Shown piece after piece: positions 32,501 to 64,000 of a DNA stretch of 64,000 nucleotides. Each line of letters starts with the position of its first letter. The first letter of the stretch is position 1. This DNA is from Isurus oxyrinchus. Lineage: Eukaryota. The notes beneath the pieces are model-generated. The model was not told the DNA's origin, searched no databases, and saw only the letters and a program-made list of their open reading frames with translations. The translations under genes and the position numbers were made by a program. The DNA lies in assembly GCA_026770705.1 (NCBI GenBank), contig JANJGN010000034.1, forward strand, positions 4,836,001-4,900,000. Direction: 5' to 3'.

Positions 32501-35500
32501 TCTTTTAACAAGAGCTCATTTAACATTCTGCTTTGTACTCTATATTGTCTTTTTTGCACGTTTGTACATTTTCTGTTTCCTCCTTGGAAGACTACGTCCC
32601 AGTCGGCATTGTGGTATCTTGGTTAGGAGGAAAGCTCAGTTATACAGATGCGGATGAAAAAGGTTATCTGATTTTCATTCTCGGTTTTACCCTTTATTTT
32701 GCACTACTGTTGTCAAAATCGCCTAAGACGTCATTGAATACATAATTTGTCATTTCTTCCCCCTTTTTGATAGTGATCGAGAAGTTGATCCAACTCCAAG
32801 AAGTTGCAGGTGATACAAAACAATTTATTGTGTTCGTTTTCTTTGAATGCAAAACCAGGTACGGTTAAAATATATAATGGGACGGTGAGGGCAAATTAAG
32901 ATGCAAGGGGAAAAGAACTCGTTACGGGAGAGCCATGCTTTAAACATATAGAATGCAGAAGAGCTCCTCATAGAGGTTATTTCACAGACGTTTGAAAGTG
33001 TCTGAAATTAGACAATTAGTAAGACAAATAATTACTACAAAAATCTCTTCATGAAGCGTTGTAAAACCCAATAGTACTCGAGGACTGCAGAGGAGCTTAT
33101 ATAATACCTTTACATATAAAAAAAGGTATAACATATCTCCAGGGAATAAGAGAGCACTGAGCTTAACATAAGTAAGTTAAAAAATAGTGGAATACTTTCA
33201 CAAGGGTACGGGAAAAGTTACTTCTACAATGCAAAATATAATAATGAATGAACACCATGGGAAATCAAGGGAAAATCTTCCTTGACCAAGCATATTCAGC
33301 TTTGGACGAAACACTGAAAGAAAGTGTGCAATGTTTATTCAACAGATCTGATTTATATGGATATTCAAAGGGACTTTGTTAAGTTGCAATGCGCCCTAAT
33401 TATGATTATGTTAAGATAACTAGATTTTAGTTGTGAAGTGGCAGAGTTGGTTGCTACCTTTTTTTCAAAATAAAAAGAAGAAAACGGAACTGAAGAGTAC
33501 CTTCTGAGCATGATAAGGTTGTGATGCGGTGTTGCTCAAGGGTCAGTGCTGAATCTACTTATTTTCAAAATGTACATTAAAGATTTGGACTTTGTAAATA
33601 ACAACAAAATATCCACATTAGCGAACCTCAGCCAAATTGAGGGTCACTGTTTACTGACCAAAACATAAATTAATTATTGAATGGGAGCAATGATTTTTTG
33701 AAATTGATAAGTTAGTTTGGGAATAATCCTGCTGCAAAATCAAATATGAGCTAAGAGAAAAATATTGTGGTTGCTGAAAATCTGAAGCAAAAACAAAAAA
33801 TATTGGAAAAACTCAACAAGTCTAAGAGCATCTGCATAGAGGAAACAGTTAACGTTTTGAGTCCAGATGACACTTCATCAGATCTAAGACGTCTAGAAAT
33901 GTGGTGGATTATAAGCTGCTTGAAGGAGGTGGGACAGGTAGAGTTGGATAGAGGGACACTGATAAGTGGAGGCAAAAAAGGGACTGCTAAAAATGTCATA
34001 GGCAAAAGTTCAAAAGGTGCTGATGGTACTGATATTAGCTGCGTAATGTGCTAATGATGATATTAAGGGAAGAAAACAGGACGAGCATGTTACAGATAGC
34101 ACCATTGTGGATTGGGTGTGGGGAAGCAATCGAAATCGGCTAAAAGGTAGAGATAAAGCACAGGACAGAATTACATTTATTAATAATGAAAATAGGTGGG
34201 GAAAGAAAAATACGTTAAAGTATCCATACAAAATATAAATTGTTAGAAAAAGGGAGATTGGAAAGGATTCGGGGATGGGGGAGAGAGTTGTTGAGCTCAA
34301 TATTAAATCTGGAAGGCAGTAAGGGGCGTATTCAGAAGATTAGATACTGTTCCTGCAGTTTGCGTTAAGCTTCACTGGAACATTGCAGCAGGTCAAAGAT
34401 GGACATGTGGACATGAGAGCAGGATGGTATGATGAAATGGCAAGTGACAGGGAGGTCTGGGTATTGCTTGCTGACAGAACGAAAGTGTTCCAAAAATACA
34501 TAACTCCATCTTGCTTGGCCTCTCAAATATAGAGGAGACCGCATTGGGAGCAGCGAATGCTGTATATCAAATTGAGGGAAGTGGAAATGAATTGCTGCTT
34601 CACTTGGAAGGAGTGTTTAGGCCCTTGGACAGTGAAGAGGGGGGGCGAGTAAAGGGGCAGGTGTTTTACCTTCTGCTGTTACATGGGAAGGTTCATTGGA
34701 ATGAGGATGAACTTTTAGGCGGTGATGGACGAGAGGATCAGGGTATCCCAGAGGCAACAATCCTCGCAGAGTGCCGCCAGGGGGGATCAATTGACGATGC
34801 ATTTCTTGGTTTATCTGCTGGAGTTACCAGAAATTTCAGAGGATGATCCTTTGAATGTGGAGGCTGGTGGGGTGATAATTGAAGACAAGGAGAACACTAT
34901 ATATGTTCTGTTAGGGAGAATAAGTTGTAAGGGAGGATGCGTGGGAGATGTGCTGGGCACAGTTGAGCACTCTGTCAACCAGCGTGATTATATGAGCTAT
35001 CATGTTGTGTTTGAAAGAATAGGAAGCACAGTTTGTGCCTGGAATATGCAAGTCTAGGTGTGCTAAAGGAACCAATCGGACTTTGAAACAAATTACACCA
35101 ATTATTAAATGATGTTTGAAAGGATTGTATTCTAAAGGACTGGCACAGATGCAAATAATATTTAGAAGGACGATGTTAATTGTTCCATCATGTGATGTGG
35201 ATCACCCATGCAATGACAAACGTTGTTTCCCTTCAATAATTACCCTTCAGGATGTTGTGGTAAGCTGGCTTTTTGAACTGCCATAACACATTGGATGCTG
35301 CTGTACACCTACTGCTGTTGTCCATTGAATTCCAGGAGCTTCATTCCCACCGCAGTGAACCAATGGCATTATAGCTCCAAGTTTAGTTTTTTTTAATGGG
35401 AATTTTCAAGAAGAGGTCTTTCTTGATTAAGCCTGTTGACGTTGTCAGTATAGGTGCTGGAGGCGTCTAGGTTCGCAGATTCCTTCAAACGAGACCTGTT

Positions 35501-38500: not shown

Positions 38501-41500
38501 CATCCCATTCTCTCTTGAAAAGTAATGCAGATGGATGACCAGACATGGGCCTTTAAAATGTCGAACTTGGAAGCTTGGCACTAAAATCACGATTTCCCCT
38601 TTTGTGAGAGACTACAACTCGGGGAAGCAGTTAAAAAAATATATATATATTGCAATAAGGATGACTTGCTCCGCTTGGAAGACCAAGAGCCTTTGGAGAT
38701 CTGTTTTACAGAGAGCAGTGCAGGCGCATTCAATAAATGTTCCGGAAAAACAAGGAAGCCAAAGTTTACCGGGAAAAGAAATACATTTTGGATTTAAGGC
38801 CACAATCCGATTATCCATGCTCTCAGAGAATAACAGGGTGTGATGTGCCGCGGGGGCAGCACGTGATTGGTGTGTCTTGGTGGCGGTGCAGGTGGAGGAG
38901 TGGTGGGGAGAGTGTGGAAATGAAGCGGAGTGGCCAATTGGCCTAACTGCTCTCCAATCCTTTTTTTTTTCATTTCGTGTATTAGAAAGGGATCGCTTGA
39001 ATATGCTGAGATAGTATTTCCTCCTGGAGGAGAATGCAAACCTAGAAATTATCAAAATGCTATAATTACAAAAAAAAACTCAACATGCAATTTTGAAGAA
39101 CTACCCTCTCCAAAGTATTGTGAAAGTTTGGAAGTTGGAAACGAACATTGGTTGAAAGGAGTAGTGCAGTTGGATTAAGACACGCATATGGGGTTAGCAA
39201 AGCTAAGGCCGCCATAATAGAGTCAGGAGGGGAGGAGTCTCAAGTGGATCGTAAACATAAACTCTTTGAGCCAAATAACGAGTTTCTGTGTCGTATTTCC
39301 TATTTAATTACATGAAGTTAAATAAGGCATTTCAAATTTTAACTCGGTGCCAATTGCATGTTCATATATTTTTGAAGTAAAAAAAACAACATATTTTGAA
39401 TTCTATGGTTTGAATTGTTTCTGCATCAATTGCAGAAAATTGCTTGGTGGCATTATTTTAACTGCATGTCTAGCAGAGTGTACTGCCGGCAGCATCATGG
39501 ATTACAGCTAAGAATCAATTGAACTGTCTCCAGGTATAGAGCTCAAATATACCGTGGAAGTGTTTCCTTTGTCTTGCTCACTTGTAGTTTAGTGTGTATC
39601 ATTTTGGCACCCATATTGAAACTTACACGGGAAGGCGGCTGATATTTTTCAGTGTGTGATGCCATAAAATTTGGAGCAATATAAACAGGGAAAATATGTT
39701 AAATACATCAGCTTTCTTACTCCAACCCTGCTATGTGTGCTTGCTATACTAATGATTATGGTTAAGGCTAAATGAATATTATATTGTAACTGCTGGTCAA
39801 ATTTTTCCGATTGTGCGACAGACCAAAACAATAGGCCATGAATCTGAGAGAGTAACGAATTAACCCTGTATTAATTTCAGCAGAAACTATGCTTCCGAAA
39901 TTTAGTTGGAACGTTTCCATTTCTACCATAATGAATTTTAGACTAAATTAGATAAGCACGCATTGCAGACAGCGGCGAGTACTTTGCAGTGTGAGATGGC
40001 AAAACAGCAATGTATCCAATCGCCGTCCCATTTAAGATAGAGTCGGGTCCAATCTGATCGTTCCACTAAAATTATCAAAACATATTACTTTTCAATGACA
40101 GAGTGGATTGTCACCCAGATCCAAGCCAAATAGGAATAAATTGGAACACAAATGCTAATAATATTAACATATTCGCAGAACAGATGTAAAAAAATCACCA
40201 CAATAACTGTCATGTTCTTTTTAAGTGAATAAAACAAACTTAGAAAGATGTGAGTAAAATTGAGGTACAATCAATGCGTTCGGAAACGAGGCAGGCAATT
40301 TATGGACCACAATGTCCAAGTAAACATTTTAAGGAGGTAAAAACACTATTCATGTTTAATTTGTTTGTTACAAATATTCTACCGCCATAGGTTTTCGAGT
40401 GTATTGAGGCATTAGTGGAGAGATAAACTGTAAGCATGTAGCGACTGTGACCTTTCATCCGTTCTGATGCAAGTTTCCATAGCTGAAATGTTCATTCTGT
40501 TTGTCTCTCCAAAGGTGTTTTCAGACTTACTGATCATTCCTGGCAACTTTTCATTGTATTTCACATCTTCAGTATGCACTGTATTTTGATTTTGTAAAGA
40601 GGATTTCCTTTTGTCTGCTTTGAATGGCAGAGGAAAAAAAAGAGTATATATAAAAAAAACGTTCTATTCTGATGGAACCAATAAAAACATTTTGTCAGCA
40701 CAATGTAACATTCATTCCAAACCCAAGCACAGAAGGACAAGGGAAAACCCCAAATAACGAAAGGCAAATTGGATCTGGAAAGAAATCTCAAAGTGCATGT
40801 ACACCATCTGTATCTCAACAGAGATATACGTCTGTGCACGGTCTGCATTCAGAAAATATTTATTTATTTCAATATACAAAATAGTGTCCTGGAACAAATT
40901 CAGCAAAATGTGGCGCCTGCGTACCGAGCTCAGAACAGCAAATCATTGAAAACCTTGATGCAGAACAACCCCCACCCAGATGTTGCACGAGTAACAGTTC
41001 TTGCAAAAACAAAACATATCACCCAGAAAAATCCTATGCTCATCGAATGTAAGACCCTGCCAGATCAGTACAATTGTATTTCAACTTTGGGCGATATTGG
41101 AGTTTGGGCCCATTAAATGCTGTAATCAACTTTATTTTCCACCTAATTAAATGGAAATTAAATTCTTGTGGGTTCTTCAAGAGAAACAACCGAACAGCGC
41201 AAATAAGCAACGTCTGTTCAGGGCAACTTTGTGCTCATACAATGTAAAATATAGCACAACCTCTTCTATACTCTGAACAAAAATAATTTTGGACAACACA
41301 TGAAGCAATTTATTTATCACGTAAATAGAAATTTGATCAATGCATGCAACGATTTAGAAAAGACATGCAAAGCGACTGTGCTTCAACTTTCATTTAAAAT
41401 TGTACAGCTTGTTTTATTATCATTTATAGAAAGAACAATTAAGCGGAAAGATGAAGGTAGGATCTTTAGGTTTCTCTAGTTAATTTTGTTTTTTGGAGAT

Positions 41501-44500: not shown

Positions 44501-47500
44501 CATGTCTTCACTCACCCCAACTTCCAGTCATCCATCACCAGTGTGCTCAACATACTTCAATAGCTCCCGTTGTTGCAATGGCTGGAACCAGTGATTTCAC
44601 CATTAACATTCTGCAAGAAAAAATAATTCAATCTGCTGGGAATGAGAAAAGAAAGTGCATTGCCACGTAATTTCATCACATCAATCGAACGGCATCTCCA
44701 CTGCAAAAACATTTTATATAACTATCTTCCTGCATTGTAAACACCGGTAGAATTGTTTGAGTGAGTATTCTAGTATATATATTTTCTTTTATATATCCAA
44801 CACTCTTATGCCCCAATACCCTCTATTGCAATTCTTTATTGAGACCAGTTTTGTATTTGCATGTTGACTAAATTTTTTATTTTAAATTTTAATTTGACTA
44901 CAAATCTGTTGTTTTATTCGTATATTGCCAGTCTTATTGTGCTAGTCACTTCCCCTATCATGTTATTATTAGTATTGTTATTATTATTATTATTATTAGT
45001 TACATTATAATTATTATTCTTATTATCATCCTTGTGCCACTTTGACGAATTCACATCGCATAAATCATTTTTTTTGTTATCTTCTTCAGTATTCTTGAAC
45101 AGGGAGAGAAGGGTCTTTGTGTTTTCCCGATGGAATTATTAATAAAATATGAGAGTTGGAATTAGACAAACAATCTACGTTTTTAATCCGAGGATGCATG
45201 ACACAAGTTCAAGCACACATTCGGTACAATTAGTTTCCGCATTCCCTGGCTGTGGTATAACATCACTATTTTGCCCACTTCCTATTTCCTAGAGTGACTG
45301 AACGTATGATCAGAATTAGATGTAGGTGGTCATATTTAGTTTAATTAATCAAGCGCGGTACGACAGGGTAGGAAATGTCACAACATCAAAAAAAGTAAGC
45401 TCCAGCAGAATCAAAGATTGGTAAAATCGGCTGTGGTTCGAACCAGCCTTGATCTTCTAATTCCATGCCAAGATCAGCTGTTTATCACATTTACACTGAA
45501 GTACCCGAGATATAATTCCATTCCGACAGGTCCATTTGAGGGAACGCTGGACAAAGCCACATTCTCTCCAGCTGCCCCTTGCATAGCATTATGAATGCAT
45601 TTTCTGCAGTCAATCACCATTTTCCGAATTATATTCACAGAACTCGAAACATTGAGACAGCTAAACGACGAAAAAGGTGTGAAAAATTTTGTCTCTGCTG
45701 TGCCTCTGAAATGTCCATTGAATAGCCCATATTGTGCCAGATGCGGCTCATTTAGGTGCACTGCTGCTTCTGAGTTGCATGGTTCTGACTCAAAACTCAG
45801 TTCCAGGAGGCTGACCATGTAATGTCAATACCCTGGTAAATATATCCTTATGAGTTGTTTTATCCTCACTGGCGATGTTAGTTTTCCGACTGTTTGAATT
45901 GTAGAATGATCTAATCGTCCTCTTGAACAATTGTGAGCAAACCCCGAGGTGTTTTCCTCAGCTGCCTGATTAATGCACTATTAGCAGGGAGCTCGGCCGT
46001 TATCTCTGAGTTCTTTTGGAATCAGTGCACAAAAGTGTTTCCACTTTACAGACGTTCAATCTAACAGCATTTCACATTAATTTAGTTGAGCGTTAAGGCT
46101 TTTGTGAATTACTGAGTGGAGGGTGGCAAAGGTGATTTTGAAAGTCAGAGTGTTAGGTTGTATTGTTCAATCAGCCTAAACCGAGCACGAATCCAATGCA
46201 GCAAAGCAATTCTTGTGTATTGCTCCTTTAATGATGGATCTGATATTCGAGCTTGCTATCAGGGGTGGTTTTCTATCCATGTATAAAACCAATACATTTA
46301 TTTACCGCTGCAGATGACATCATTGGGCAGAAAGAAACAGGTATATTTATGGGATATTTTATAACCAAGTCTGCTTGTGAAGATCTGAAAATTTATTCGG
46401 AATTCAGAAAGTTATGATAATTGGCCTCTTTTGCAAAGAGGTTCAGTTTCTAAATTGCGCTAAGAATAATGCATCTATGATCAGCGTGCTGCGAATTTTT
46501 GAATGGAGAAGAGTTAAAACCTGTAAATTTGGTACCATTTGAGAACTGAGTATTTGTATCACTTTCCCCTTATAAGTTCCCTAAATCTGTTTTTCTCCTA
46601 GCAAGCTCAAGTGTATTTTTGAGTGTGTGTGCGGGCGAGCGTGTATGTCGGTGTGCATGTGTGTTGGTGTGGGCGTATAGGTGGCATTAATTATATGGGT
46701 GCTTGTTTAACAAGTAGGTGATATCATTGCAAACATTGAACAACCAATCGTTGCCGAGTTTGCATTCCTGCGAGCATCTAAATAACTCCTGAATATGATG
46801 AAGCAGCATGATATTTTTGTGTACACGTTCAACAAAATATATAATGCCTTGTCTTGCAATAAAATTATCGATCATGACTCTTCTCTCAAGAGCGTTTCGA
46901 ACCCCCACACCCATCAGGCGCTCCTTTCCCAACCCCATATTTAATGCCATTAAATGCATGTGGCTGTTTTCCTCCAAAAATGAAATGAACGCAGCTATGT
47001 TAATCAACATTTACTGGAAGAACACGATTCACCGTACAGCCTTTTAGGAATTTGTAAAAATATACACAATATTAACATTCAGCCGAGCATATCCAAGTTG
47101 CACCTCATGGTTAACAATGTTAACGACCATAAACTGTGACGTGCATTTGGGAGTTGGACAGTCATATTTCATCTGTACTGCGCAAAATTATGTTCCTCCA
47201 TCTCTCTTCTTTTTTCCAAAAGTGGCAACCTGTTTAATACATTTATTCTCCACATGTCAACAATTCCGTTGACTTCTACACTGCAACAAAATTCTGAGGA
47301 AAGACATATCACCTGAATCCCTCGTTGGATTCATTGGTCAGTGTCATTTATTTTTGTCCTCTGATTCTGCAAATGGATATAAAGAGGGGTCGGAGGATAA
47401 TTCAAAGACCCCTTAGTAGCTCATGAGTATCTGCATTAGATAATATACAAATTATTATACGTCAAAAAAAGCCTGCCGGGAAACCTCAGGCAACCTGACA

Positions 47501-50500
47501 ATATCTACAAGGAAGGAAAAATAGTCATATTAGACGATACGGTGACTCTGCTTCCCGATCTAAAGATGCCGAAAGACGGTTTGCTTTCTCAGCAAGTTCT
47601 GTTTTCATATCAGTTCTCCAGTAACCGCTATGTTTTTTCTTTATCATTGATATTTTTGTAAACTTGAAACGATCTCGACAGTAGTTGAATACTTTGCCGC
47701 CGTCCTAATGCATAAGCACTAAAAAACATGTAGAAGCAAAACCAAAAGTGAGAAAAAGATGAGAGTGATTCCAGAAAACGTGGTTACATGTGTGAGAAAA
47801 TGTAGAAATGTGTAGTTGGCCGATCTTAGAACATAGAGGTTTGAGAGTTGACCTACCAGACAGCCACGCAATGTTGAATAGCTAAAAAGAAGAGACGTAG
47901 ATGAGTATATTTCCACTTTGGGGAGATTACAAATGTGGTTGCAATGTGTTTGATATGAATGCTCATAAAACAAAATGAAGAAATAGGAAGACAAGCCTCA
48001 AATTGGCATCTGTAGAAATGTGGAAAATGCTGACACAACGAGCTATTGAATCCATTATTTCAATGCAGTTAAGTGGAAACTAATTAGCGCGAGAGGGGAA
48101 CAAGATCTAAAGAATGGTTGGAGGGAATGGCTTATTACTGATGCTCCCTACTTTATTATTCTATATATGTAACAATGAATATGCTTGTCTGTTTTCTTCT
48201 GCCAGTTATCCGAGAGCTGAATACACTTGTTGAGAGAATAGGTGAGAGATGTTCATTAATTTGTCCTTTCAGTTAAGGATACTAAGGCAACCAACGTCAA
48301 CGTCAGCGCCAAATTATTTTTTTCGACAAAGTGACAATATATAATTTGCTAAACAACTCTACAGACAATCAGTGAGAAGGAAAAAAAAAGCTTTGATTTA
48401 AGTTTCGATACGTTGGATAGAGATTCACCAATTAAATAAGTCTTCAACCTGTATAAATGTCGTCTGAACAGGACAATATGGGTGAGCAGGATTCGGATGG
48501 CAGATTTGTAGTTGAGAATATGATACCGGACAACCGCTATCTGTGGAAAATCATGGAAGGTAACATGATATGTATGTCAATAGGACAAGGGCTGCAGGTA
48601 GAAGGGGACAGTGCCACCTGGAATTACCCATCCACGTCACTCACCACACTGTCTTGGAAATATATCACCGTTCCTTCCCTTTCACGAGATTAGAAAACTG
48701 GAACGCTCTCTTTAACAGCTAAGTGGATGCACCTAAAGCACATAGGCTGCAGCAGCTGAAGAAGGCTGGTCACCACCACCTTCTCAAGGGTAACCTTTGA
48801 TGAGCAATAAATATTGGCTACGCCAGCAAACCATACATCCGATGTGTGATTTTAAAAAAAAAATGACTTTCCCTTAAGGAAGTAATGGTCACGCAGTCAA
48901 TTGGAATATGCAATGGTGGGTGCTGTGGCAATGTAAGGAGGCTGGGGAAGGGGGAAAGGAGGTGGGTTGGGGGGGCGGGGAATAGTTTCTTAAAAGCGGA
49001 AAATCAGTGCAGTTGCCTGAGCAATAAAACTGAATTGTGTCATTGGACATGCAAAGTTAATGAGTTCACACTTCTGAGACATGCAATACTTCACACTTGG
49101 CGATACATTCATTAGATAAGTGAGCCATGAAGATATGTCATGGTAAGGAAGACAAAGGAGATTATAATATGAATACAGATGCCCTTGGGTTAATTTAGAC
49201 AAGCTTGAACCTTGGCGAGTTTTGGGGATGGAGTTTTGCTAAGTATGTCATTTGTGCAGATGGTGTTCACTAAGGACATTGATTTCCAAAAGTGTGAATT
49301 TTGTTCTTTCGAATTAGATATATGTCATCAGGATTATTTTCTTTCATTTTGACTTTCCATGACGTGATGAGTGATAGTTTTACCTTAGGTGTGTTGACAC
49401 GATATGGCTGGAGCTAAACTGATGTGGTGTTTGGTGACTTAATTGCAACTGCCGCACAAAGCCTGTTTGACTAACCGTGAGCCTATAGCATGGTCTAGAA
49501 AGTATTCGGCTTGATTTCTGTGTCGAAAAAAAAACATAAAAAAATAACATTTCGTTTAATTCAGTATTGTCTGCTCAAACTCCTTTTTTAGAGGCAAAGA
49601 TAGCGAAGAGAGATATAGGTAAAATGATTAATGCTTTAAGCTCTGCAGTATACTTTCTCAACTGAATAAAAAGCCATAAAAACAATTCCTGTCTTAATGG
49701 AGGTATCTGTATCGACTTGTTCATGACTTAGATTTAGCACGGAAAATATCCAAAAGAAAATTCTCGGAATAGACAAGTGTCTTTTTTTTTTACAAAAAAA
49801 CAAAACCAAAGGTAAAAATTTCACTGTAAATGGAGCACCGACGTATGTAATCAAAGATGACTGAGTTTCAGACTTCGGAGAGAAATCTTTGATTAAGGTG
49901 GCAGGGAGTAACCTATGTTTGGTTTCATAACAATGAATGCTAATCAGGCATTTCTGCAGAAATAGACAGCAATACAGAATACCAAACAAAACCGTCAACA
50001 AAGGAACAGAGCAGCACGGGCAAGTCATTCAACGCCATGAATTTACACAAACATTCTGTTAGTTCGTGGTTGTTACGCAACTTTGCAGCAATTATGCAGC
50101 TTTCTTCCATTACCCTGAACCGCCTCCCTACCTCAAATAAAATGTGTTGTATTTTACACTTGAAATTATTTAACCACAATTACATTTGTGTGGGGGATGA
50201 TCGAGAGTCAAACTAGCTAAGGAGCCCTTCATTGCAGTTGCCTTTAGCGGTCTAGCTCAAGTTATGTACTTGTCGCCCCTTGTGCTATCTATCACATCTG
50301 ACCAATGAACCGGTCCCTTTATCCAGCTACGCTGTATGCTATTTCTGCCCGTGTTATGCAAGCCAGTAAGAACAACTTGTTTTTATGTTTAAGGGGATGC
50401 AAACTTTGCCTTCACAAGTTGCACTTCTGAGTTTTCACGAATTACAAGTTCTGATTACAAGGAGTGCGTAACTTATACGACTTCGAATTTTACTTCATTG

Positions 50501-53500
50501 TTACCAGTGTCTGGCCTCTAATGAATATAAATTAATTAACTTCAGCGTTCGCATACGATGGACCATATAATGTAAAACTGATATATATATTTCTAATTGG
50601 ATCAGGTTATTGTTATTTTATTGTTCTGGTAAATCAGGCAAAAAACCTCAGGTTGACGCTTTGGATACTATCACAAAGATTGTTCCCTGCTACGTTAATG
50701 TGAGATCTCTCACAGAACTCTGAAATTTAGTTTGGTTTGATGTTCAAGGTCAGTGTTCCATTTTCAATGTAATATTTTCCTTTGGATCTGTCCCTTAAAA
50801 AGATCGAAGATGAAGCACGGATTTTCGTTTTTTTTGTTGACAAACTTCTGTGAATCAATGGTGAGACCACCACTAGTAAATATGTCAATTCCAGCTGGCG
50901 TGCTTTGGAAAACTCTCCTGAAGCGGACACGTTTGGCATAAAGTCTTGCAGTTTCCAATATTACCTTTCCTAGCAGATGGTATCACTGATTTCTGTCATG
51001 TCGCTCGTTTACTCATTTTGCATGTTGTATCGCTAGGAAAAATAACTACTGTGGACACCTCAGTAAAACAACTGTATGCAATATCAATAGCGGACGAAAT
51101 TTTTGCAATATCCAAATGATCATTCCAGTATCACATTTTGTCTGCATTTGATTTGCAGATGTTTCGACCTGCGATAAAATGAGCAATGGTGAGTAATCTG
51201 AGAGCCGAAATTGGACATAGACATAAATGGATCACAGGCAGAATCACGCTGTATTCACCAGATAATAAGGCCTTTTTTCTCGTATATCAGATTTCACTGT
51301 CATTCCAATCCACATCTTCAGAATTTTTGCGCTGTTAAAGCTTTTTCCAACTCAAATGGTCATTCGCTGTAATATTGAATGATTGCAATGCCGAACATCT
51401 GCATTCAATCGTCAAGCATGGCCCCGAGCTAACAGGGGCGGGTCATTCCACAGGTCTACCTTGATGTCAGTCTGAGCTCAGTGGCTTCCTACAGTGGTCC
51501 ATTGCTGAATTTAAGATGGAATATCAATCCGGGATCTACTAAGTAGGCAGATTAAAGGGTTTAGGAGGACTTTTAACTTTTAAAACTGCGAAGTCCGCAA
51601 GTATTTTGCTTCTGTTCTTTTTAGGTTTTCTTGTGCTTTGAACTCTTGACTTCTTTCCTTAATTCAATTTGCATCGTGACAGCTGTTGATCATCATTGCT
51701 TTCTTAGTCCAAACGGTACTATTGAAGTAGTGTACATAGTGATGTATATTGTATTACTAAAGTTAGTATTATTAACATTATTCTTAGCATTAATATTGAT
51801 ATTTTTTTTGGAGACCACTGTAGAGGTCAGAGTTTATTGGCCAACCATGATTGACTTTGAGAATGCAATGTGGCACCTCCATCTGGAAACATTGCAGTCC
51901 ATCTGCAGATGTGAAGGGGATTGAAGTGTAGGTTCTGCAACAGTGAGAGATTGGCAACAAATTTCCAAGTAGGGTGAGTGTAACTTGATGGAAACTTGCA
52001 ATTGGTGGTGTCTCATACGCTTGCATTCCTTGTTCTTCTAGGATTAGAGATTGTGAATTGGAAGCTGTTGTCGAAGGAAAGCTGTTGAGCATGTACAGTT
52101 ACGTTGTGCACAATGCTGCTGTTGCACATCGGTGTTGGGGGCAGCTTATACCTAAGTAAATATTGGAATGCCAATGCAGAGGGTTGCTCGCCCCGGGTGG
52201 TATCGAGCAATGTTGGTACGGCAATCTTACAGAAAGTGGAGCAAGTTCCATAACTCTGCAGATTTCCAATGCATAGATAGACGAGAGGCATTGCAGATAT
52301 GAGGTGAGCTGTTCGCCTAGGAATTGCTGACCTCTGACGTTATCATAAAGCCACAGCATTCTTATGACTGTTGAAGTGCATTTTCTGCTCAATACTATGC
52401 TCGAGAATGTTGATTGTGCAGAATTCAACGATTACAATGACAGTGCATGCGAAGGTGATAAAGCTGGATACTCGCATGATGAAGATGGCTATTATCTGAA
52501 GAATAATCGGAATGAGTTAATCTTTGCAACTTTAAATGATAATGACTAAAGATCCTTAACTACAAATTGCATCCTATGGAAAATAAAGTTATGAATGGCA
52601 GACCTCTGGAAAATTTAACAATATTAAATCTAAATTTGGCATTTCTTTTTGTTTTTTTTTTAATGTCTATATTTAGATTTGGAACAATTGAAGCTGGAGG
52701 TTCATATAAATGGTGAGGCAACTGTGTAGAAAAACTATAGTTTGATCATTTCAAATTTAATCAAACTCAAATTATATCTTGAAGTATTTGAGTGAAAAAA
52801 GCTAACATTTACATTTCTTCGCTGTGCTAAATTGGAACTTTCTCTTTTTCGTCCACGATGATGCTTCTTTGTGATCTTTGCTGCAGAAAAAACGTTGCTT
52901 GAGAAGGAAATGGGTAAGGATCCAATTCATTTACTTTAAACTGTTAGGTTTTGGTAATTGAACTGCCTATGCCTTCTTCATTAAACAAAGTAGAGATCAG
53001 TAAATTGAATAAAACCCTGCTTGGTATTCTTCATTTGATACAGCAATAATAATCATAACATAACCATTTTGCAACAATCAACTTTACCACTGAAAATGCA
53101 GCGTGCTAAAACAGGATGTTAAAGAGAGTAAGGAGCAATGTATCTCCGATTTCCCCTGAGGCCAATGGCATCACCGATAAAAGTCCTTGGACAACTCAAT
53201 TCACTCCATGCAAAATTAATTTTAAAAAGCAGCAGAAGGCACCGGATATGGCAAAGGAAATGAACCCTGTCCAGTTCACTCCTTTTGTGCTGTAGGCTTA
53301 TTTTCCAACAAAACACCGACATTGCCAACATTTCTCACAATGGTTACATTTCTGGCATCGTCAAAGTGCACAATTCCCAAAAACAAGTTATACACCAAAC
53401 TCAAGAAAAATCCAAACTTTACAATTACTGACTTGTTAATCGACTCTTAATCAGTAGAATAATAATTGACGGAGGGATCGTTTAAATTGCCAGTAAGTCG

Positions 53501-56500
53501 AACTTATAAGCAATAGCCTGAACACTGATGTACCGTGTGGGTACCGCTGGAGCCAAAACGCTTCCAGCCTCCCTATAGCCTTTGTCGAAACAGGGACAAA
53601 AGAGCTGAACAGCGTTGCTGAGGTAAGTTAGACTGTTTTTGATATCAAGGGAACAGTTGACCAATCATGGCATCAAGTCGTCCCAGGAAGCTGAGCTCAA
53701 AGTGGATTAACGAAGTAAGCAAGGGGGAAAAAATCTTCCAGTTGCTGCTCTACATACAAGAAAAAAATCGCTGTGGTCGTGGGAACTCAATTATACCAGC
53801 CCCATTATCCCAGCATCAGCAGTTCATCAGGGTAGCAGCTATGATAAATCATCTTGAGCTGCTTCATCACGATTTTAACACAACAAAACAGTGCCTCATA
53901 TTATACCAGATTCTTCAGGTACTTAAATTTAAAGATTTCAGTCTATGCAAACATGCAGCAAGAGCTGGGCAACAGATTGAAAGTTATATTTCCGCCACTC
54001 AGTGCCAGGTACTGATAATGGAAACATCCAATCTTGAAATCCAAGATCTTACCTTTGCTGAATCCCTTCATATGAACATATTTGGATTAAAACAAACTGC
54101 AACTTTGATTCGAACATTTGATTAAATGCTGTACTTTTGAGAATAGTTCAGAGGCTGGGAAACCTGAATGAGAAGCAAAGCTTTTGAGTACTCGAATACA
54201 CTCTGCTATACGCATTGAGTCAAGTCCGGAGCGTGAATGATTATACTCCGTTTGCCTCGATGAACTCAGCTCCAACAACAATTAAGAAGTGTGATACCAC
54301 TCTGGGAAAGGTAACTCTCTTGAAAATGTACTCCAGTGGCAGGATTATATATTCCATTCCACCACCCCCTGCACCGAATGGAAGGAAAATGCAACATTTC
54401 CAAAGTTTAGGGCACGGACGCAAATCCCTCTTCGAGAGCACATTGCAAAAGTGTGGCCTATAGCACTTTGAAAGACAGGGGAAGGCGAATTCTGCTATCA
54501 AAAACGATGACAAGTGCCCCTTTAAATCACAACATATCCGTATTTTACTTTCAGTTACTTGTGAAAGTACATTCACCATGGTCGGAATTCTTAAATATTT
54601 AACCTAAGTACCCAAACACATCCGAAAATAGCGAAGCCTGTGGAAAAGTCGGTTAGCATTTACAGACGTTTTTGTTTATCTCTCACTCGACGCACATGGA
54701 CACTGGACGAGCTTAACGAATCATTATTTTTCCCTACACGTTGAATGAGCTGCTTTTATGATCCATTGCAGAAAACACTTTGAATCCTACCCCCAAAGCA
54801 TTGGTCAGAATGGAGTCCAGAGGATTGATCCAGCATCGAAAGTCAATAATGAACAAGTTGGTATTATGGGTGATTTTGAGCGTAAGTTTCTAGTGGTGGT
54901 TTACCTACGAACACCTACGCCCCAAAGCCACCATCCCGAGCCTCATCCCCTTCTTTTTATGGCGGAACAGTTAAGTGGGTTGATGTTGAATTTATTCCAC
55001 ATTCACCAAATAATGCGTAGACGCCAGAAGTTGCTGTGAATTACGTTTTGCAATACCAATGCTCACTAGCATACTCGCCCTTTGAGTGCATCAAACTTGC
55101 AATTCACTTTTTAAAACTTCACTTAGGTGCTGCTTCCCAACTTCTGGATAATAGAATCATTAGCTTATTCCATCAATCTTGGCAAATCTGCCTTACAATT
55201 GATTTTTTTTTTTCCGTCAATTGTTCGGAGTTCTAAATATGAATAGGTAAGTATTTGCCGTTTTAGTCGCAGGTAGGATCTTGGATGCTCTGTGCATTCC
55301 ACAAAAATTGCAAACCACATAACAGAGCTGGAAAATAGCACATTAAAGACATTCATGTCCAATATTTGAAATTCAGACTTGAAAGCATTGGGTGGAGTAA
55401 AACCACCTCTTCATATGTACACAGATTGAGACTAGACAGCAAATTGTAAATGGGGAATAAGCAGTTACGCAAAAAGATACGCTGGAGAATTCTGGAAGAA
55501 ATCTATTGTTACTTTGTTGTTCCTACTAATATTAGTTGTACTCCAAATTGCATGCCAGGTATTTCAAAATGGTTTTTCATATGCTGTAATAGCGTTCTGC
55601 AAGTCAGGGACACATTACTAAAACGGGACGGGAATGATTAAACTGATTTTATGTACGTTCACTAGCATAGACAACAATTGATGAATGATTAATTAACGGT
55701 CATGCAGGTTGTGATTAGTGATAACGTTTGAAATCATGAGGGTACCTAGATAGCTACAGCAGAGTGCAGCATGTTATCCTAAATTCAAACAGGAGGGATT
55801 TCATTTTTTTTTACTAACTTTTTAGCAAAGCCATTTTGGCAGTTATGTACCTTCTTGCCAGTGTGGCTTTCGAAATCAGTTTAAGCTATCTTTGGAAAGT
55901 CATTTGTCTTAGCCGTTGCAAATTTGGTCCTTCCCCTGAGTCAAGCAATGGTGTTTTCCAACATTCTGAAAGGGACATCACGGTGCACCCCAAGGGAATG
56001 CTGTACTGTTAAAATTCCCAACCTGTTGAGGACAAAAACACCCTACATCTCCATCTGCCCTGTCAGGGTGCCGCACATGATTCCACGGCACTGCTTCAAC
56101 GTACACAAGAACATTGTACTTCCCCTCCCTCCCAGCAAACCATAAATCATGGCCGGACCTACATGCATGACGCAAAAACATCCCTCCAAAACCAAGTTGT
56201 AATCTTTTTAATTTTGATGATTGCGCATTATTCTTCACAGAATGACATTTTTTCACCGATCATCATATTACCCAGTGCAGTTCGAAATTCAAATTGCCCA
56301 CAAAGCAATTTTGGAATGTGTTGACAGCTGTCCTTTAAATTAATATATTTTTTCTCCACTTCGCCCTTTGTAGAACTGTTCCAGTACGATGCAGAGACGC
56401 GTGAGTTGCTTCATTATTTATTTCAACAGAAAACATAGTAATATTATAATACAGGCAACATCAGACATTAAGTAATCTAGCACTTGCTCCGGCATTCAGT

Positions 56501-59500: not shown

Positions 59501-62500
59501 GCCAGTAGGTGTCGCTAAATCTTCGAAAAATGCAATTGGCAAAAGGGCTGACATTTTCCTTGGGACAACATAAAAGAATATTTTCTTTCGAAACCGGGTC
59601 AGTGCCTTGAAAACTCCTCTGGAAAGACTTGGAAATGTAAGCCTGTCTCAAACTCGATGTCAAAAATAGACACACCCTGAATTTGTTCGATCTGAGGTGA
59701 GTGCAGGACATCATCATCCCACAAAGTAATTTATCTTGTGGATAATAGCACAGGATTCAGTTTTGTGCTGCTAACATCCGCGTCACAAACCTGTCCCCAT
59801 TCCTCACCCAGCTGAAATTTCTGCCTCTGCTCTGTGTGTGTCATTAGCAACAACGTGCTATGCTCTCTTACAGAAGAAAAGATTAACATAGAACGCAGTG
59901 GTAAATGATTTTCACATTAAGTGTCATTTTAATTTCCTTCTGTCTGAATAGTTCTACCAAATGGCTACGCATCAATATGCATCAATTATCAATTGTGGTG
60001 TTCTCATAAAGGGTGATATGCATGTCTTGGCTCATGCCTGCTGGTACGTGAGGCACAAAGCTATGTATACTTCAATTCTGGAAGTTCCTAATTGATCTGC
60101 AGCAAAAACACTTTGTTTTTTAGTTTATGAAACTGGGGTACAAGAAATACCGCTTTCAGGGTCACCAAGCATTTTGCTTTAGCGGTGGCAGGGGAATTGC
60201 TTCTGAAATACAGTACAAATATGGCTGAGATGTTCATCATTGTACTGCGTGGGAGCAGGCCAATGCTACCCGTTAACGTGGGTCTGGTTAGCTAGACTAG
60301 CCATAATACGGTTCATCTTATTCAATGTAAAGTGCAAACGTTTGTGGTGCCCGTGAAGAAACGTTCCCAGTTGCAATATGGTCTAAATTAGATTGTAAAA
60401 TATACACTCGCAACGTGATGTTAGAAAGGACTATTTCACAAGGGGAAGTACAATGATACATTTTTATATTACTTTGCTTGTTCATGGGATATGGGCGAGG
60501 CTGGGTCTTCTTAAATTATTGCTCATACCCATTTTCCCTTGTGAAACTTGAGGTAAGCTGTATTGTTCAAATGCTGTGGTCTACTTAGTGTAGATGCATA
60601 CACACGCTGGTTAGGCAGCGAGTCCTATGAATTTTAACCAGTGACAGTGAGAGATGGCGATCTATTTCCAAGTCAGTACAGTGAGTGGCTTGGAGAGGAA
60701 CATCCAGGTGGTCGTGTTCCCATGTGTCTGTTGTCCTTGTCTTTATATATGCCATTGGTTTGGATGCCGCTGTCTAAGCAGACTTCATGAATCCCAGTAG
60801 TGCATCTTACAATATATACACTGCTGCCACCGTGCTTCGGAGATGGATTGAGTGAAAGTTTGAATAAGTGGTGCAAAACAGGTGGGCGGCTACATTTCCT
60901 GCATAATGTTGACTGCTTGAAAATTGCATTAAATTTCCAGACGATGCATATTGAAACAATTACAAACATTAAGGATACCATGGGTAAAATGTCCTGATCA
61001 CTTCACACTTTACTATTTTCTGGCAGGAGCACAGTAATCAGATTTTTCAAAGGGCAATTCCGTGTTCCTTCGAAGCTACTCTCCTATTATCAATTTTTAG
61101 GATGGGGATAGGATTTTTTACTGAATACTCCACTATGGATCATTCCATAGCAGTTATACAAACCACACCATGTTTATTCACTTTAATTTCAACTAACAAT
61201 AAATTCGGATGGGGTAAAAAGCAAACATGCAACCAATAATGGACGGGAAATTTTAAAATTGTAGAATGGCCCCCCCAGCAGCACATGGTCCTAAAATTCT
61301 AATTCAGGTCAACATTGAATACAATAGGACATTTTCGTCAACATATATCACCTCTGCCAGAGTTTTCACAACCTCACTGCTCTTTTCATTCTTAGAAATC
61401 AAACGCCTGGAGACAAACATCAACAAGCTCAGTAAGGAATTATGATTACTTCTCAGCATATTAGGCATAGTTACCGTAAGACAGTCTACCAGATAAATTG
61501 ATTGAATGAGTATAATTTGAAAGTGAGCTATCATAGATGTTGCACCAACCAATGCCTAAGAACTTAATTGCAAAGTATTTAAAATTATATATTATTATTG
61601 TTTTTTTTTTACTTTTGGTGCTAACAGCGATTTTCTCAGGCAGAAACATGCCTTTTGCCCCAGTGCAAAAAAGTGAGTCTGCCATTATGGTCGTTTCCGG
61701 GATTCATTTTTAATTATTTCGCTGATTCTGAAGAAATTTGAGAGCGACAATAGGACGTCTGTGTAGTAGTGCTCATTTTGTTTCACGCATGAACCAGATG
61801 GGAAAATTATCTATTTTTGTCTATAGTTCGAGGTTGGAAATTTCAGCTACGCTTATACTGTGGATATCGCTTCATTGTCGGCGTCACTTGGTTACCGACT
61901 GCAAGCTGATATTCAGGTATCATAGGTGTTCTTCTGCATGACCCCGGGCATTACTTACATTGCAATGGCATTCTATCAATATTCGGTATTGAGTTCCAGT
62001 ATTAAAAGCAGTAGCAAAAAAAATGCATTAATATTGAGCCTTCAACGCAATTATGTCTTTCATGGTGCTTAAGACTTTTAGAATACTCCTCCTAGAAGCA
62101 TATTGCGGTGTGACCCCTTGGCATACCAGATTAATTCATAATTCACCTTGCATCCATATTCGGCAGTTCATTGTGAATTTATTGAAGATTGATTTCATAC
62201 TGGGTAAATTGTATTTCCTGAGAATGTACATGTGCAGCAGTGAAGAAGATTTACAGAAGATTGTTCGCTTATGGACAATAATAACTGGAAGGGAATTAAA
62301 GAGATATGGCAAGCAGACATGTCATGGGGCGTTTACAACCCCGTGTCGCCATTGTATTGCATTTCTTGCAATTTAGGCAGCACAGTACAGATGTGTCCAA
62401 CGCTTTATCAGTTGTTCTGTTGATTATGAAACTGGAGGAATAAATATCTGGCAATTATATTGGATTCATGATTGATTGTTGGACAATCCAGGTGTGTTTT

Positions 62501-63346
62501 CGAGGACCCGAAAGATGCCATGATTCTAGAGCATAACTTCACCCACTTAGTACCACAGCTTCACTGCAAGGCCGGATGGGAAATTGTTTAACATATTTAT
62601 CGGAAATCATCTTTCTCTCTCAAATCCAAAAGCTCCATATCAAACTGGAAAAAAAAAATCCACTTTCAAGGCATCCTTTCAATGAATTTGACATAATGAG
62701 CTATCGACTCTATTTTCAACGTGGCTGCGTTGACATGAAGACTGAAAAAAAAGTTTTTTAAAGCGTTGATTAACTGGAAGCCTTTCATTTACCACATAAG
62801 ATGGGATGTCTAGTAAAATTTCCTATACTAACTCCTGACAAGGAAGATGTAACCATAGATAAAAAAAACTGAGGATGCTGGAAATCTGAAACACAACCAG
62901 AATTGCCTGGAAAAACTCAGGAGGTCTGGCAGTTCTGTGGAAGGGTCATGAGGACAAAAAACTCGTTTCTTCTCCGCTGATGCTGCCCGACCTGTTTAGT
63001 TTTTCTGGGTAAAGATGTAACTACATGTCTACTGATCCAGAGACAATGGAACTGGTGGATTTATTTTCCATTTTCAAAGCAGGCAAGTGTTAGCATAAAG
63101 GGTTCACCCGTTTATGACCAATGCTATGGTTTTATCTTCTCAGCTGATGATATTAAAATCAGAGAAGAAAGTAAGTATTCAGCCGAAAACCTAATTGTTC
63201 AAGAATACGTGTATATTTTGAAATAATTATCAGACTGTTTTTTTTTTTACATTTTAACAAGGAAGAGCCCTAATTATTGTTTCTTTTTCATTTAATATAT
63301 TTTTTTTCTTTTCCATCAGAACTGAAGAAATGTCTGGACGTGCTCA
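23457..63346 (+). CDS. Partial multi-exon gene of symmetric phase-1 microexons encoding a coiled-coil-like repeat protein (unidentified; architecture resembles butyrophilin/BG tails or CD23 stalk)
   Basis: At least 14 AG/GT-bounded exons, all multiples of 3 and all open in phase 1. Spliced microexons read VIEKLIQLQEVA-ERTIKRKDE-ELETLRQLNDEK-DDIIGQKET-VIRELNTLVERI-EAKIAKRDI-DVSTCDKMSN-EFNDYNDSACE-EKTLLEKEM-ELFQYDAET-QEKINIERS-ADDIKIREE-KLKKCLDVL. The gene probably continues past the window end. Confidence 0.8.
24300..24800 (-). mobile_element. Second LINE family 3' fragment, decayed
   Basis: gactagcatttattgtccgtc...gaatggtgtgtga matches the reverse complement of the 5480-6040 family tail. Confidence 0.55.
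25190..29330 (-). mobile_element. Near full-length decayed CR1 LINE (ORF1, endonuclease, RT, 3' tail)
   Basis: RT in ORF 26315-26701 (IFQSSLEIGEVPEDW...PVSLTSVVSKLVE...QHGFGKRRSCLTSLLE...YMDFSKAF); endonuclease in 27759-27950 (AVYYR...IIVGNFIYP); ORF1 Cys motif CSSCRIWE near 29260-29285. Confidence 0.93.
28320..28352. repeat. Poly-C tract
   Basis: Run of more than 20 C within the CR1 copy. Confidence 0.9.
29540..30150 (-). mobile_element. Second LINE family RT fragment
   Basis: Reverse complement gagacttattgcctttgacatgaaactagtggctgactggtgtgacatcaagg is a decayed ALDIKAAFDRVWHQG motif. Confidence 0.6.
30550..31560. repeat. GC/G-rich unclassified interspersed repeat
   Basis: Abrupt switch to G-rich, CpG-containing sequence with G-runs (31365-31452); no recognisable protein. 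Confidence 0.4.
32410..32424 (+). CDS. Candidate 15-nt phase-1 microexon (ERRHK)
   Basis: ttgttcttgctcttgcAG acceptor and AAC/gtaatg donor; alternative upstream acceptor at 32357. Confidence 0.4.
32591..32662 (+). CDS. Candidate 72-nt phase-1 exon (xYVPVGIVVSWLGGKLSYTDADEK)
   Basis: ttctgtttcctccttggaAG acceptor; weak AAG/gttatc donor; alternative donor gttagg after 32621. Confidence 0.4.
32774..32809 (+). CDS. Microexon A1, 36 nt (VIEKLIQLQEVA)
   Basis: tttcttccccctttttgatAG / CAG gtgata; aligns with A2 and A3. Confidence 0.75.
32880..33700 (+). mobile_element. Decayed CR1 RT fragment
   Basis: tatatggatattcaaagggactttgttaag (YMDIQRDFVK) and ggtgttgctcaagggtcagtgctg (GVAQGSVL). Confidence 0.7.
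33765..34980 (-). mobile_element. Penelope-like retroelement 3' part with decayed GIY-YIG endonuclease
   Basis: - strand 34609-34505 reads FQVKQQFISTSLNLIYSIRCSQCGLLYI*EAKQ; further 3' RKLQEQYLIF*IRPLLPSRFNIELNN; terminal repeat at 33765-33885. Confidence 0.85.
35240..36120 (-). mobile_element. Second LINE family fragment, decayed
   Basis: ORF 35445-35663 MEYSPLAWNWLAPNN matches the EFSPLA...AAPTT segment of the 5480-6040 copy. Confidence 0.65.
36380..37545 (+). mobile_element. CR1 LINE RT to 3' end
   Basis: cacaaggcgtttaataaggtgcctcagcaaagatta (KAFNKVPQQRL); tail gaatagcagagcagtctcgaagggccgtgtgccctatttctgct. Confidence 0.85.
37790..38430 (-). mobile_element. Decayed LINE fragment (second family)
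   Basis: tggagtggattgaaatggccgaagattggcagctgcgatgctgg... resembles internal sequence of the second LINE family. Confidence 0.45.
38990..39300 (+). mobile_element. Decayed CR1 3' end
   Basis: Ends gagccaaataacgagtttctgtgtcgtatttcctat, similar to the CR1 tail at about 5230-5270. Confidence 0.5.
41430..41456 (+). CDS. Microexon B1, 27 nt (ERTIKRKDE)
   Basis: ttgttttattatcatttatAG / AAG gtagga. Confidence 0.8.
41610..41915 (-). mobile_element. tRNA-derived SINE with a tail resembling the second LINE family
   Basis: ttccctaaaggacattagtgaattagatggg core; reverse-complement head atagtagtattatcgtcgcaagcctaataatcc...cccgggttccaaactc with A/B-box-like motifs. Confidence 0.65.
44210..44405. mobile_element. 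Palindromic Penelope-derived short element (hairpin)
   Basis: Arms aaacaaaaacagaattacctggcaaaactcagcaggtctggcagcatcggcg (44244-44295) and cgccgatgctgccagacctgcagagtttttccaggtaattccgtttttgttt (44354-44405) are near-perfect reverse complements. Confidence 0.85.
44962..45030. repeat. (TTA)n microsatellite
   Basis: gttattattagtattgttattattattattattattagttacattataattattattcttattatc. Confidence 0.85.
45641..45676 (+). CDS. Microexon A2, 36 nt (ELETLRQLNDEK)
   Basis: ttttccgaattatattcacAG / AAG gtgtga. Confidence 0.75.
46314..46340 (+). CDS. Microexon B2, 27 nt (DDIIGQKET)
   Basis: tttatttaccgctgcAG / CAG gtatat. Confidence 0.8.
46620..46682. repeat. Imperfect (TG)n microsatellite
   Basis: gagtgtgtgtgcgggcgagcgtgtatgtcggtgtgcatgtgtgttggtgtg. 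Confidence 0.6.
48206..48241 (+). CDS. Microexon A3, 36 nt (VIRELNTLVERI)
   Basis: tgtctgttttcttctgccAG / TAG gtgaga. Confidence 0.85.
48590..48855 (+). mobile_element. Second LINE family 3' end
   Basis: ctgacttggaaatatatc-like motif (ctgtcttggaaatatatcaccgttcctt), caccaccaccttctcaaggg...gcaataaatattggctacgccagc. Confidence 0.8.
49592..49618 (+). CDS. Microexon B3, 27 nt (EAKIAKRDI)
   Basis: ctcaaactccttttttAG / TAG gtaaaa. Confidence 0.8.
51159..51188 (+). CDS. Microexon A4, 30 nt (DVSTCDKMSN)
   Basis: ttttgtctgcatttgatttgcAG / ATG gtgagt. Confidence 0.8.
51880..52320 (-). mobile_element. Second LINE family 3' fragment, decayed
   Basis: atttccaagtagggtgagtgtaacttgatggaaacttgca matches the reverse complement of 48600-48670. 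Confidence 0.6.
52422..52454 (+). CDS. Microexon A5, 33 nt (EFNDYNDSACE); read-through gives a possible terminal exon ending at stop 52549
   Basis: gttgattgtgcAG / AAG gtgata (same donor hexamer as A1); frame stays open to TAA at 52547-52549; AATAAA at 52582-52587. Confidence 0.6.
52887..52913 (+). CDS. Microexon B4, 27 nt (EKTLLEKEM)
   Basis: cttctttgtgatctttgctgcAG / TGG gtaagg. Confidence 0.85.
53350..54400 (+). mobile_element. Second LINE family RT fragment
   Basis: gatatcaagggaacagttgaccaatcatggcatcaa (DIKGTVDQSWHQ, decayed DIKAAFDRVWHQ); cagctccaacaacaattaagaag near 54270. Confidence 0.7.
56374..56400 (+). CDS. Microexon A6, 27 nt (ELFQYDAET)
   Basis: tttttctccacttcgccctttgtAG / CGC gtgagt. 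Confidence 0.8.
56690..57420 (-). mobile_element. Highly decayed CR1 fragment
   Basis: Pyrimidine-rich decayed sequence resembling - strand CR1 ORF2 elsewhere in the window. Confidence 0.4.
58530..59400 (-). mobile_element. Highly decayed CR1 3' fragment
   Basis: agcatagctcaaatttccagtacatcctgcc, ctcatgggagctccaaatacaaagatctg resemble - strand CR1 ORF2. Confidence 0.4.
59874..59900 (+). CDS. Microexon B5, 27 nt (xEKINIERS)
   Basis: gctatgctctcttacAG / GTG gtaaat. Confidence 0.75.
60480..60900 (-). mobile_element. Second LINE family 3' end
   Basis: ttcatgggatatgggcgaggctggg...gtgacagtgagagatggcgatctatttccaagtcag is the reverse complement of the family tail. Confidence 0.75.
62860..63012. mobile_element. 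Palindromic Penelope-derived short element
   Basis: gatgctggaaatctgaaacacaaccagaattgcctggaaaaactcaggaggtctggcag...gatgctgcccgacctgtttagtttttctgggtaa; same family as 44210-44405. Confidence 0.8.
63144..63170 (+). CDS. Microexon B6, 27 nt (ADDIKIREE)
   Basis: ggttttatcttctcAG / AAA gtaagt. Confidence 0.85.
63320..63346 (+). CDS. Microexon A7, 27 nt (KLKKCLDVL)
   Basis: tttttttcttttccatcAG / TCA gtgagt; 149-nt intron after B6. Confidence 0.85.
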
Positions 63347-64000
63347 GTGAGTACTTTTTGCAGAGATATATGTGTTCCCTTTTACATTACTCGAGCACAT
63401 TTTTCCCTGCACATATGTTGTGAATGAAGTAATTAAATGCAAGGCTAGAACATCAGATTATTTTAAATTTAGATATACACAAGGAATTGTGAGCAGATAA
63501 GCTCTTAAAGGCCTTTTGGGGATTCCAACTCACTCTATGTTAGCAAAGCAAAACAATGGATTTCGATATGGCCGACCATTATATGCAAATTTACAATGAG
63601 AACTTTTAACAATATAGCGAGCAAAAAACCCTTAGAGACTGCTGTGGAGCAATATAATCTAAGCTTTTAGAGAACAGCACATAACGCTATATTAAAGAAG
63701 CTGAGCAACACTTTTGTCAAAGAGCATTTAAAGAGAATTTAATAGGATGGATAACAGGCAGAAATACAAAGACCACAAACATGATAACATCAGCGCTTGA
63801 GGGCAAAAGAATTGAAGACATTCAACAATTGGGCAGTGAGATAAGGATTATTATGGAGCCAGAACTGGATGAGTGAACGTAACAGTGACAGAAAGTGGGT
63901 CATCATTTTGTTTCAGCATAAGATTTTGGCACATAAAATTTGTGGAATATTAACATTTAACGGTGAATTATTTGCCCCTGCTGACCTGCTGGTCTGCCTA

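Follow-up and report, generated by a model that had tools for sequence, protein, structure and literature searches.

In chicken BG genes, a long coiled coil is spelled out by numerous short exons whose first codons are split, about 27-37 of them 21 nt long; an Ig-V exon and a transmembrane exon are also present, and the accessible part of that source mentions no B30.2 exon (PMC5938342). Butyrophilins, as far as the accessible parts of the two sources go, carry heptad repeats that are followed by a B30.2 domain (PMC12841164, PMC5938342). The window considered here, a 64-kb stretch (C34:4836001-4900000) of a shark genome of 4.98 Gb, lies in an array of short exons that is predicted from the DNA to form a gene of about 1.5 Mb, with about 375 or more phase-1 exons of 21, 27 or 36 nt and a start near the window. 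This host gene is predicted to encode a rod-like coiled coil, about 3,700 or more residues in length, that terminates in a B30.2 domain. Measured against the available account of chicken BG, the host gene has the same coiled coil of short split-codon exons, including a run of 21-nt exons, but it uses mainly 27- and 36-nt exons, has about ten times more of them, terminates in a B30.2 exon and has yielded no Ig exon. With butyrophilins, within the same limits of the sources, it shares the order of heptads and then B30.2 and the placement of the heptads in short phase-1 exons; it differs in that neither an IgV nor an IgC exon turned up, and in that its B30.2 domain belongs to a clade of its own (100/100) and is without Pfam PRY.

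The array was delineated in a region of 2,014,000 bases with zero N (C34:4436001-6450000). AG..GT pairs at a spacing of 27 nt number 161 on the + strand and 13 on the - strand, and those at 36 nt number 165 and 12. Exons were called with a profile of acceptor, peptide and exon-end bases from which donor positions +3 to +6 were excluded, under ten-block cross-validation and with training seeds picked by a generic donor score that was blind to exon class; the splice scores used approximate vertebrate base frequencies. At the chosen threshold, this donor-blind caller gave 457 candidates on the + strand against 5 on the - strand, and 449 remained on the + strand after overlap removal. An earlier sequence-only reading had divided the exons by peptide into class A (hydrophobic or Cys at positions 2 and 5) and class B (I or L at position 4), and by this rule 184 of the called exons are A and 181 are B, the other 84 being left out of the A/B counts (9 fit both rules, 47 fit neither and 28 are 21 nt long). 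All array exons are frame-symmetric and of phase 1, and besides A and B exons the array contains short A-like exons of 27, 21 and 15 nt. When the donor score was added, 375 exons encoding about 3,740 residues were counted from the upstream B30.2 exon to the next one, at a threshold that passes 8 minus-strand candidates in the whole 2.0-Mb region; this count is a minimum, as it leaves aside exons of 15 or 30 nt as well as several weak exons of the window. The interior of the array has gaps of up to 52 kb between called exons, and some window exons score weakly under the caller model. About 30 exons of 21 nt, each one heptad long and BG-like, lie within the 27/36-nt array at window +248 to +467 kb, and their donors are mainly GTAAG. 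Long simple repeats of the TATC/CATC type occur in introns at window +182 to +185, +85 and +267 kb, where they give low-complexity open frames.

Hydrophobic residues occupy positions 2, 5, 9 and 12 of A exons and position 4 of B exons. An A and a B exon together encode 21 residues and, by this hydrophobic spacing, thus three heptads per pair, whereas a short A-like exon and a B exon encode 18. Cys is found at position 5, in the predicted core, in 47% of the 36-nt exons, and, should the protein be secreted, could link chains by disulfides.

A single subfamily of B30.2 exons is spread along C34 at 2.71 and 3.47 Mb (- strand) and at 4.82, 6.40 and 7.50 Mb (+ strand), about 0.8-1.6 Mb apart; on C21, this divergent clade is represented by two more exons (89.7 and 91.3 Mb), alongside more than 100 other B30.2 matches. 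The upstream array terminates in the 4.82-Mb B30.2 exon, 19 kb before the window, and the window's own array continues to a B30.2/SPRY exon at C34:6395830-6396330. Together with the colinear stretch and the 111-nt exon described below, this layout suggests that the window contains the 5' end of the middle gene in a tandem set of three. Pfam SPRY matches the host B30.2 exon with E=1.7e-13 and that of the neighbor gene with E=3.4e-14, and Pfam PRY gave no match in the host B30.2. The stretch from -8.2 to +8.2 kb of the window is colinear with +1,597.7 to +1,614 kb, after the 6.40-Mb exon, over 16 kb at 76-78% identity; these stretches would be the 5' regions of the host gene and of the next paralog, in which the promoter and the first exon may lie. 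A tentative first coding exon lies about 1.4-1.45 kb before the window start, with a donor common to the next paralog, but the entire 14.5-kb block around it is 78% identical. Near the 5' end of the gene, a phase-1 exon of 111 nt with strong splice sites (23457..23567, + strand, AVMLAIEVARR...EGALK) has a paralog of the same length at C34 4.0055 Mb, in which the splice sites and the end codons are conserved; such a counterpart was found for the upstream gene only. By inspection, this exon likely encodes the end of a signal peptide and a linker. Secretion of the protein, which would serve as a long spacer displaying a binding domain, seems likely because the skate model of a relative begins with a hydrophobic stretch. 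Inspection of the strong candidates from the upstream B30.2 exon to 33 kb revealed no convincing hydrophobic phase-1 (transmembrane) exon. A direct duplication of 7.4 kb with 99.2% identity (window -209268 and -201825), which repeats an identical B exon of the upstream gene, may be either a very recent event or an assembly artefact.

The closest named relatives of the window proteins are all from cartilaginous fishes. In a midpoint-rooted B30.2 tree of 27 rows, the host domain belongs to a 14-row clade (100/100), with a subclade that includes a skate protein (97/94), and the named members of the clade are all from cartilaginous fishes (skate, ray, catshark, chimaera); the clade is separate from the TRIM and butyrophilin types. 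The named members include skate XP_055510696.1 ('TRIM69-like'), whose hydrophobic start resembles the 111-nt exon of the window, elephant shark XP_042191566.1 ('TRIM58'), electric ray XP_069775384.1 ('zinc-binding protein A33-like') and catshark XP_038672306.1 and XP_038668997.1 (both 'TRIM39-like'). Like the host protein, these RefSeq relatives have a coiled coil with B/A-like peptides and SPRY as the sole Pfam family; unlike it, they are 218-460 aa long, against the 3,700 or more residues predicted here. Their names are automatic, and they give no RING or B-box matches; RefSeq isoforms of relatives vary by 9-residue blocks, which speaks for the gene model. In the ESM Atlas, a search returned SPRY clusters of a generic kind and a single sub-threshold lead (0.84), a cluster of 1,579 aa that has SPRY and a coiled coil. 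When 166 proteins, including two V-set/C2-set butyrophilins, were compared with the 2.0 Mb by tblastn, + strand matches occurred at two B30.2 exons only, a result that a very divergent Ig exon could escape; for RING or B-box exons, with a RING/B-box TRIM (P0053) among the queries, there was likewise no + strand match outside B30.2. An identity as BG, butyrophilin or TRIM gene was rejected because Ig, RING and B-box exons were not found. A literature search, with most subscription journals outside its reach, found no paper on the host gene.

The donors of these exons were the subject of the sequence-only reading, which had listed seven A donors, all GTG, and six B donors, all GTA, and had called the sorting perfect. 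It gave no exon coordinates; its 13 hexamers can be located in order at + strand donors. The first A exon (36 nt, 32774..32809, IEKLIQLQEVA) has the donor CAG/GTGATA, the slash marking the exon end, and is followed by a B exon (27 nt, 41430..41456, RTIKRKDE, AAG/GTAGGA), by an A and a B exon at 45641..45676 (36 nt, LETLRQLNDEK, AAG/GTGTGA) and 46314..46340 (27 nt, DIIGQKET, CAG/GTATAT), and by a third such pair at 48206..48241 (36 nt, IRELNTLVERI, TAG/GTGAGA) and 49592..49618 (27 nt, AKIAKRDI, TAG/GTAAAA). A candidate short A-like exon of an atypical 30 nt (51159..51188, VSTCDKMSN, ATG/GTGAGT) is defined by splice scores only, with 0.03 chance equivalents expected in 31 kb. The fifth A hexamer, GTGATA, probably corresponds to a 33-nt stretch at 52422..52454, a match made by inference, where the acceptor is very poor and about 4 chance equivalents are expected in 31 kb. 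The contigs of run X1, from a related shark, follow the window colinearly, differ from it by about 6% and cover the introns evenly; at this stretch the run changes the acceptor A (52420) to G and differs at three exon bases, and it has no listed difference at 52656-52746, around an A exon that the reading had missed but that obeys its rule (36 nt, 52677..52712, LEQLKLEVHIN, ATG/GTGAGG), or at 52854-52931, around the next B exon (27 nt, 52887..52913, KTLLEKEM, TGG/GTAAGG). This comparison, with 33 substitutions listed over 795 bases, gives modest support to the view that 52422-52454 is unlikely to be a genuine exon. An AG..GT stretch of 26 nt, at 53102-53127, had been entertained as a frame-broken exon and was dropped, since run X1 has no indel there and differs at +5.

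Further along the + strand, a short A-like exon of 27 nt at 56374..56400 (LFQYDAET, CGC/GTGAGT) is uncertain, with a good acceptor and a poor peptide-profile score (0.3 chance equivalents according to the model); a B exon follows at 59874..59900 (27 nt, EKINIERS, GTG/GTAAAT). The second exon absent from the earlier list, at 61396..61431 (36 nt, IKRLETNINKL), has the donor TCA/GTAAGG. Its peptide is hydrophobic at positions 2 and 5 and hence of A type by the reading's own rule, its donor-blind score is 11.9, and its combined score is unmatched by any 36-nt minus-strand candidate in 2.0 Mb; it breaks the perfect rule, leaving a strong bias in its place. The last two exons, B at 63144..63170 (27 nt, DDIKIREE, AAA/GTAAGT) and short A-like at 63320..63346 (27 nt, LKKCLDVL, TCA/GTGAGT), lead on to an array that runs past the window. 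A Fisher test on the exons as originally listed (7/0 versus 0/6) gives p=0.00058, the table with both missed A exons gives GTG in 8/9 A versus 0/6 B (p=0.0014), and the better-supported A exons only give 5/6 versus 0/6 (p=0.015). Three presumed-RNA runs on 44001-64000 consist mostly of repeat coverage and show no exon-exon joint among the rows listed, which is neutral on expression.

Beyond the window, the bias holds at the strength of a tendency for one class and close to that of a rule for the other. Among the donor-blind calls outside the window, G at +3 is found in 117/181 A and 8/177 B exons (p=1e-36); 'B = GTA' thus comes close to a rule (92%), with 'A = GTG' amounting to a tendency (65%). 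The contrast persists when each 72% sequence cluster has one vote (72/125 versus 7/121, p=1e-19) or each 55% cluster has one (19/29 versus 2/37, p=3e-7), in each of two genes (31/47 versus 2/48, p=5e-11; 88/137 versus 6/133, p=2e-27), and when the recent 28-kb repeat is left aside (69/123 versus 8/128), although the share of +3 G in A exons varies by region from 5/16 to 48/58 (31-83%). Position +5 sorts the classes more sharply than +3: A exons have G in about 88-91% (110/125 representatives), whereas the B bases A/C/G/T number 38/13/30/40 and are indistinguishable from background (p=0.083). Full GURAG is present in 77/125 A representatives; among B representatives, AG occupies -2/-1 in 80/121, G occupies -1 in 120/121, and +3 and +4 are still constrained.

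Two types of donor, NN/GURAG and AG/GUNNN, with compensation between -1 and +5, have been described (PMC11732430), and the two types have opposite sensitivity to U6 m6A/METTL16, SNRNP27K or LUC7 factors (PMC11732430, PMC11842720). A donors match the first, intron-side type, as a majority only, and B donors the second, exon-side type. The fit is loose, as 38/125 A sites satisfy both definitions, 40/125 satisfy the exon-side definition alone, 32/121 B sites satisfy neither and 20/121 have full GURAG. The resemblance lies in the retention of +5 G with a variable exon end in A, and of -1 G and +3 A with a free +5 in B; the difference is that the papers treat genome-wide populations, whereas here the types alternate along a single gene and follow the ancestry of the exons.

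The sequence-only reading had further proposed an ancient tandem duplication of an A-intron-B cassette. Tandem growth is supported, and the unit is broader than that cassette, as it also includes the short A-like exons of 27, 21 and 15 nt. Along the array, A is followed by B 154 times and B by A 156 times, against 37 A-A and 22 B-B successions. On C34, from about 5.876 to 6.168 Mb (window +1,040 to +1,332 kb), a multi-exon block of about 28 kb is present in about 10 tandem copies of about 82% identity, in which the 27- and 36-nt exons form 11 groups of 9-10 copies with inherited donors and a dN/dS of 0.51; the copies also contain 15-nt exons with NVKK- and KLKK-like peptides. At +5, the base departs from that of most of its group in 0/58 A-like and 8/50 B copies, the latter being about the neutral level, and at +3 it does so in 2/58 and 1/50; positions +9 to +20 average about 5 departures. 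Intron flanks also carry class information: with whole regions held out, they predict class with an AUC of 0.78 (+7 to +20) and 0.67 (-60 to -31), against 0.48 for a far control, and with 0.64, on 17 exons, in the 5' part of the array, while the nearest flanks across genes agree in class in 108/163 cases against 77/163 for the control. The skate and electric-ray proteins both contain a B and then an A peptide nine residues apart, a register that outweighs the match count, because shuffled sequence also gives profile matches with scores above 10 (mean 0.8, maximum 5). Megablast found no 1-kb homology involving the window, and the window's own descent is therefore read from the rest of the array. 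The introns, which had been described as filled with transposons, have high-copy spots in several cases, but just 8.5% of 32.8-63.4 kb was matched elsewhere in the 2 Mb, a figure that is a lower bound. One short high-copy element with inverted arms of about 52 nt, at 44218-44407, 62863-62961 and 33759-33845, has a MITE- or SINE-like look.

The explanation that we consider probable for the two donor types (A mostly GTGAG, B mostly AG/GTA with +5 free) is that each class descends from one ancestral exon through repeated tandem duplication, after which splice-site compensation has kept it in its donor type. It builds on the statistical split, the alternation of the classes, the donor inheritance in the 28-kb copies, the class information in the flanks and the compensation between exon end and +5, all of which are observed. 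The last codon of the ancestral A exon would have been one for a hydrophobic core residue, frequently Leu, giving T at -3, and with so weak an exon side this exon would have needed G at +5. In the ancestral B exon, in turn, the last codon would have been of the Lys/Glu type and carried G at -1, leaving +5 to drift and A to be needed at +3. Once established, either state would be entrenched because a switch of type must pass through GTA.G, and the +3 G of A exons would be a remnant under partial constraint, decayed to a different extent in each region. Against this explanation stands the small difference between the classes in the mean number of exon-side consensus matches (1.72 versus 1.86), as does the lack of compensation at +5 within B.

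An alternative to which we assign a small probability is that regulatory selection keeps the split, such that one trans factor (U6 m6A/METTL16, SNRNP27K or the LUC7 balance) shifts the inclusion of a whole exon class and thereby tunes rod length or helical register. The mapping of A and B onto donor types of opposite sensitivity to these factors (PMC11732430, PMC11842720) is consistent with this idea, as are the frame symmetry of every exon, the persistence of the +3 effect in old, diverged parts of two genes, and the RefSeq isoforms of the relatives, which vary by exon-sized blocks (9 residues in three species, 6 in one). The low rate of +3 change in A-like repeat copies (2 departures versus 5.5 for neutral flanks) would allow for some selection acting on the +3 G as such. 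Nevertheless, exons of the same class hold opposite +3 bases according to lineage: in the 28-kb repeat, the A-like group LYDLQQKC has GTAAGT in 10/10 copies and LNDIQQKC has GTGAGT in 9/9, and A-like 21-nt exons have A at +3 in 11/12, indicating that +3 tracks lineage and not peptide. The regional variation in the A share of +3 G, the A sites with exon-side definition only and the B sites with full GURAG also speak against it. The most far-reaching form of this alternative, which is similarly improbable, would have a single 1.5-Mb transcript of about 400 microexons produce a secreted, B30.2-tipped rod of about half a micrometer, in which a selected donor alternation would let U6 m6A or the LUC7 balance switch an exon class and retune length or register.

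A further alternative, slightly less probable again and largely refuted, regards the split as a by-product of the peptide, with the last codons fixing -3 to -1, generic compensation fixing +3 to +5, and ancestry being irrelevant. The last residues do differ, as L ends 44/125 A exons and K ends 47/121 B exons. Moreover, within A, G at +5 accompanies 81/83 weak exon ends versus 29/42 strong ones (p=1e-5), and B exons have A at synonymous -2 positions in 55/63 cases versus 264/403 internally (p=4e-4); compensation at +5 within B was looked for and not seen. Because exon-end bases and +5 compensate in this way, the donor signal is not fully independent of the peptide, as had been claimed for it. 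The class effect nevertheless outlasts adjustment: at +3, with -3, -2, -1, +4 and +5 taken into account within the array, the odds ratio is 18 (p=1.5e-10), and at +5 it is 15. G at +3 differs by class both among sites with +5 G (63/110 A versus 3/30 B, 57% versus 10%) and among those without it (9/15 versus 4/91), and flanks beyond the consensus also sort by class. Chance or a selection artefact of the original exon list, which left out a counterexample and took in at least one likely false exon, accounts for the word 'perfectly' but is very improbable as a source of the bias, which was replicated in 358 exons outside the window called blind to +3 to +6 and in each of two genes.

Taken by itself, the donor pattern follows from known principles, namely duplication and splice-site compensation. 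The array nevertheless constitutes an unusual natural experiment, in which hundreds of paralogous donors at one locus allow lineage, peptide and donor type to be separated, and the fixation of +5 in one class alongside its drift in the other makes the entrenchment of donor types directly testable. The larger point is the host gene itself, a predicted megabase gene that may rank among those with the highest exon counts known. Titin has roughly 363 exons, a number that about 400 microexons would exceed. For the cartilaginous-fish family to which this gene belongs, databases hold short, automatically named models.
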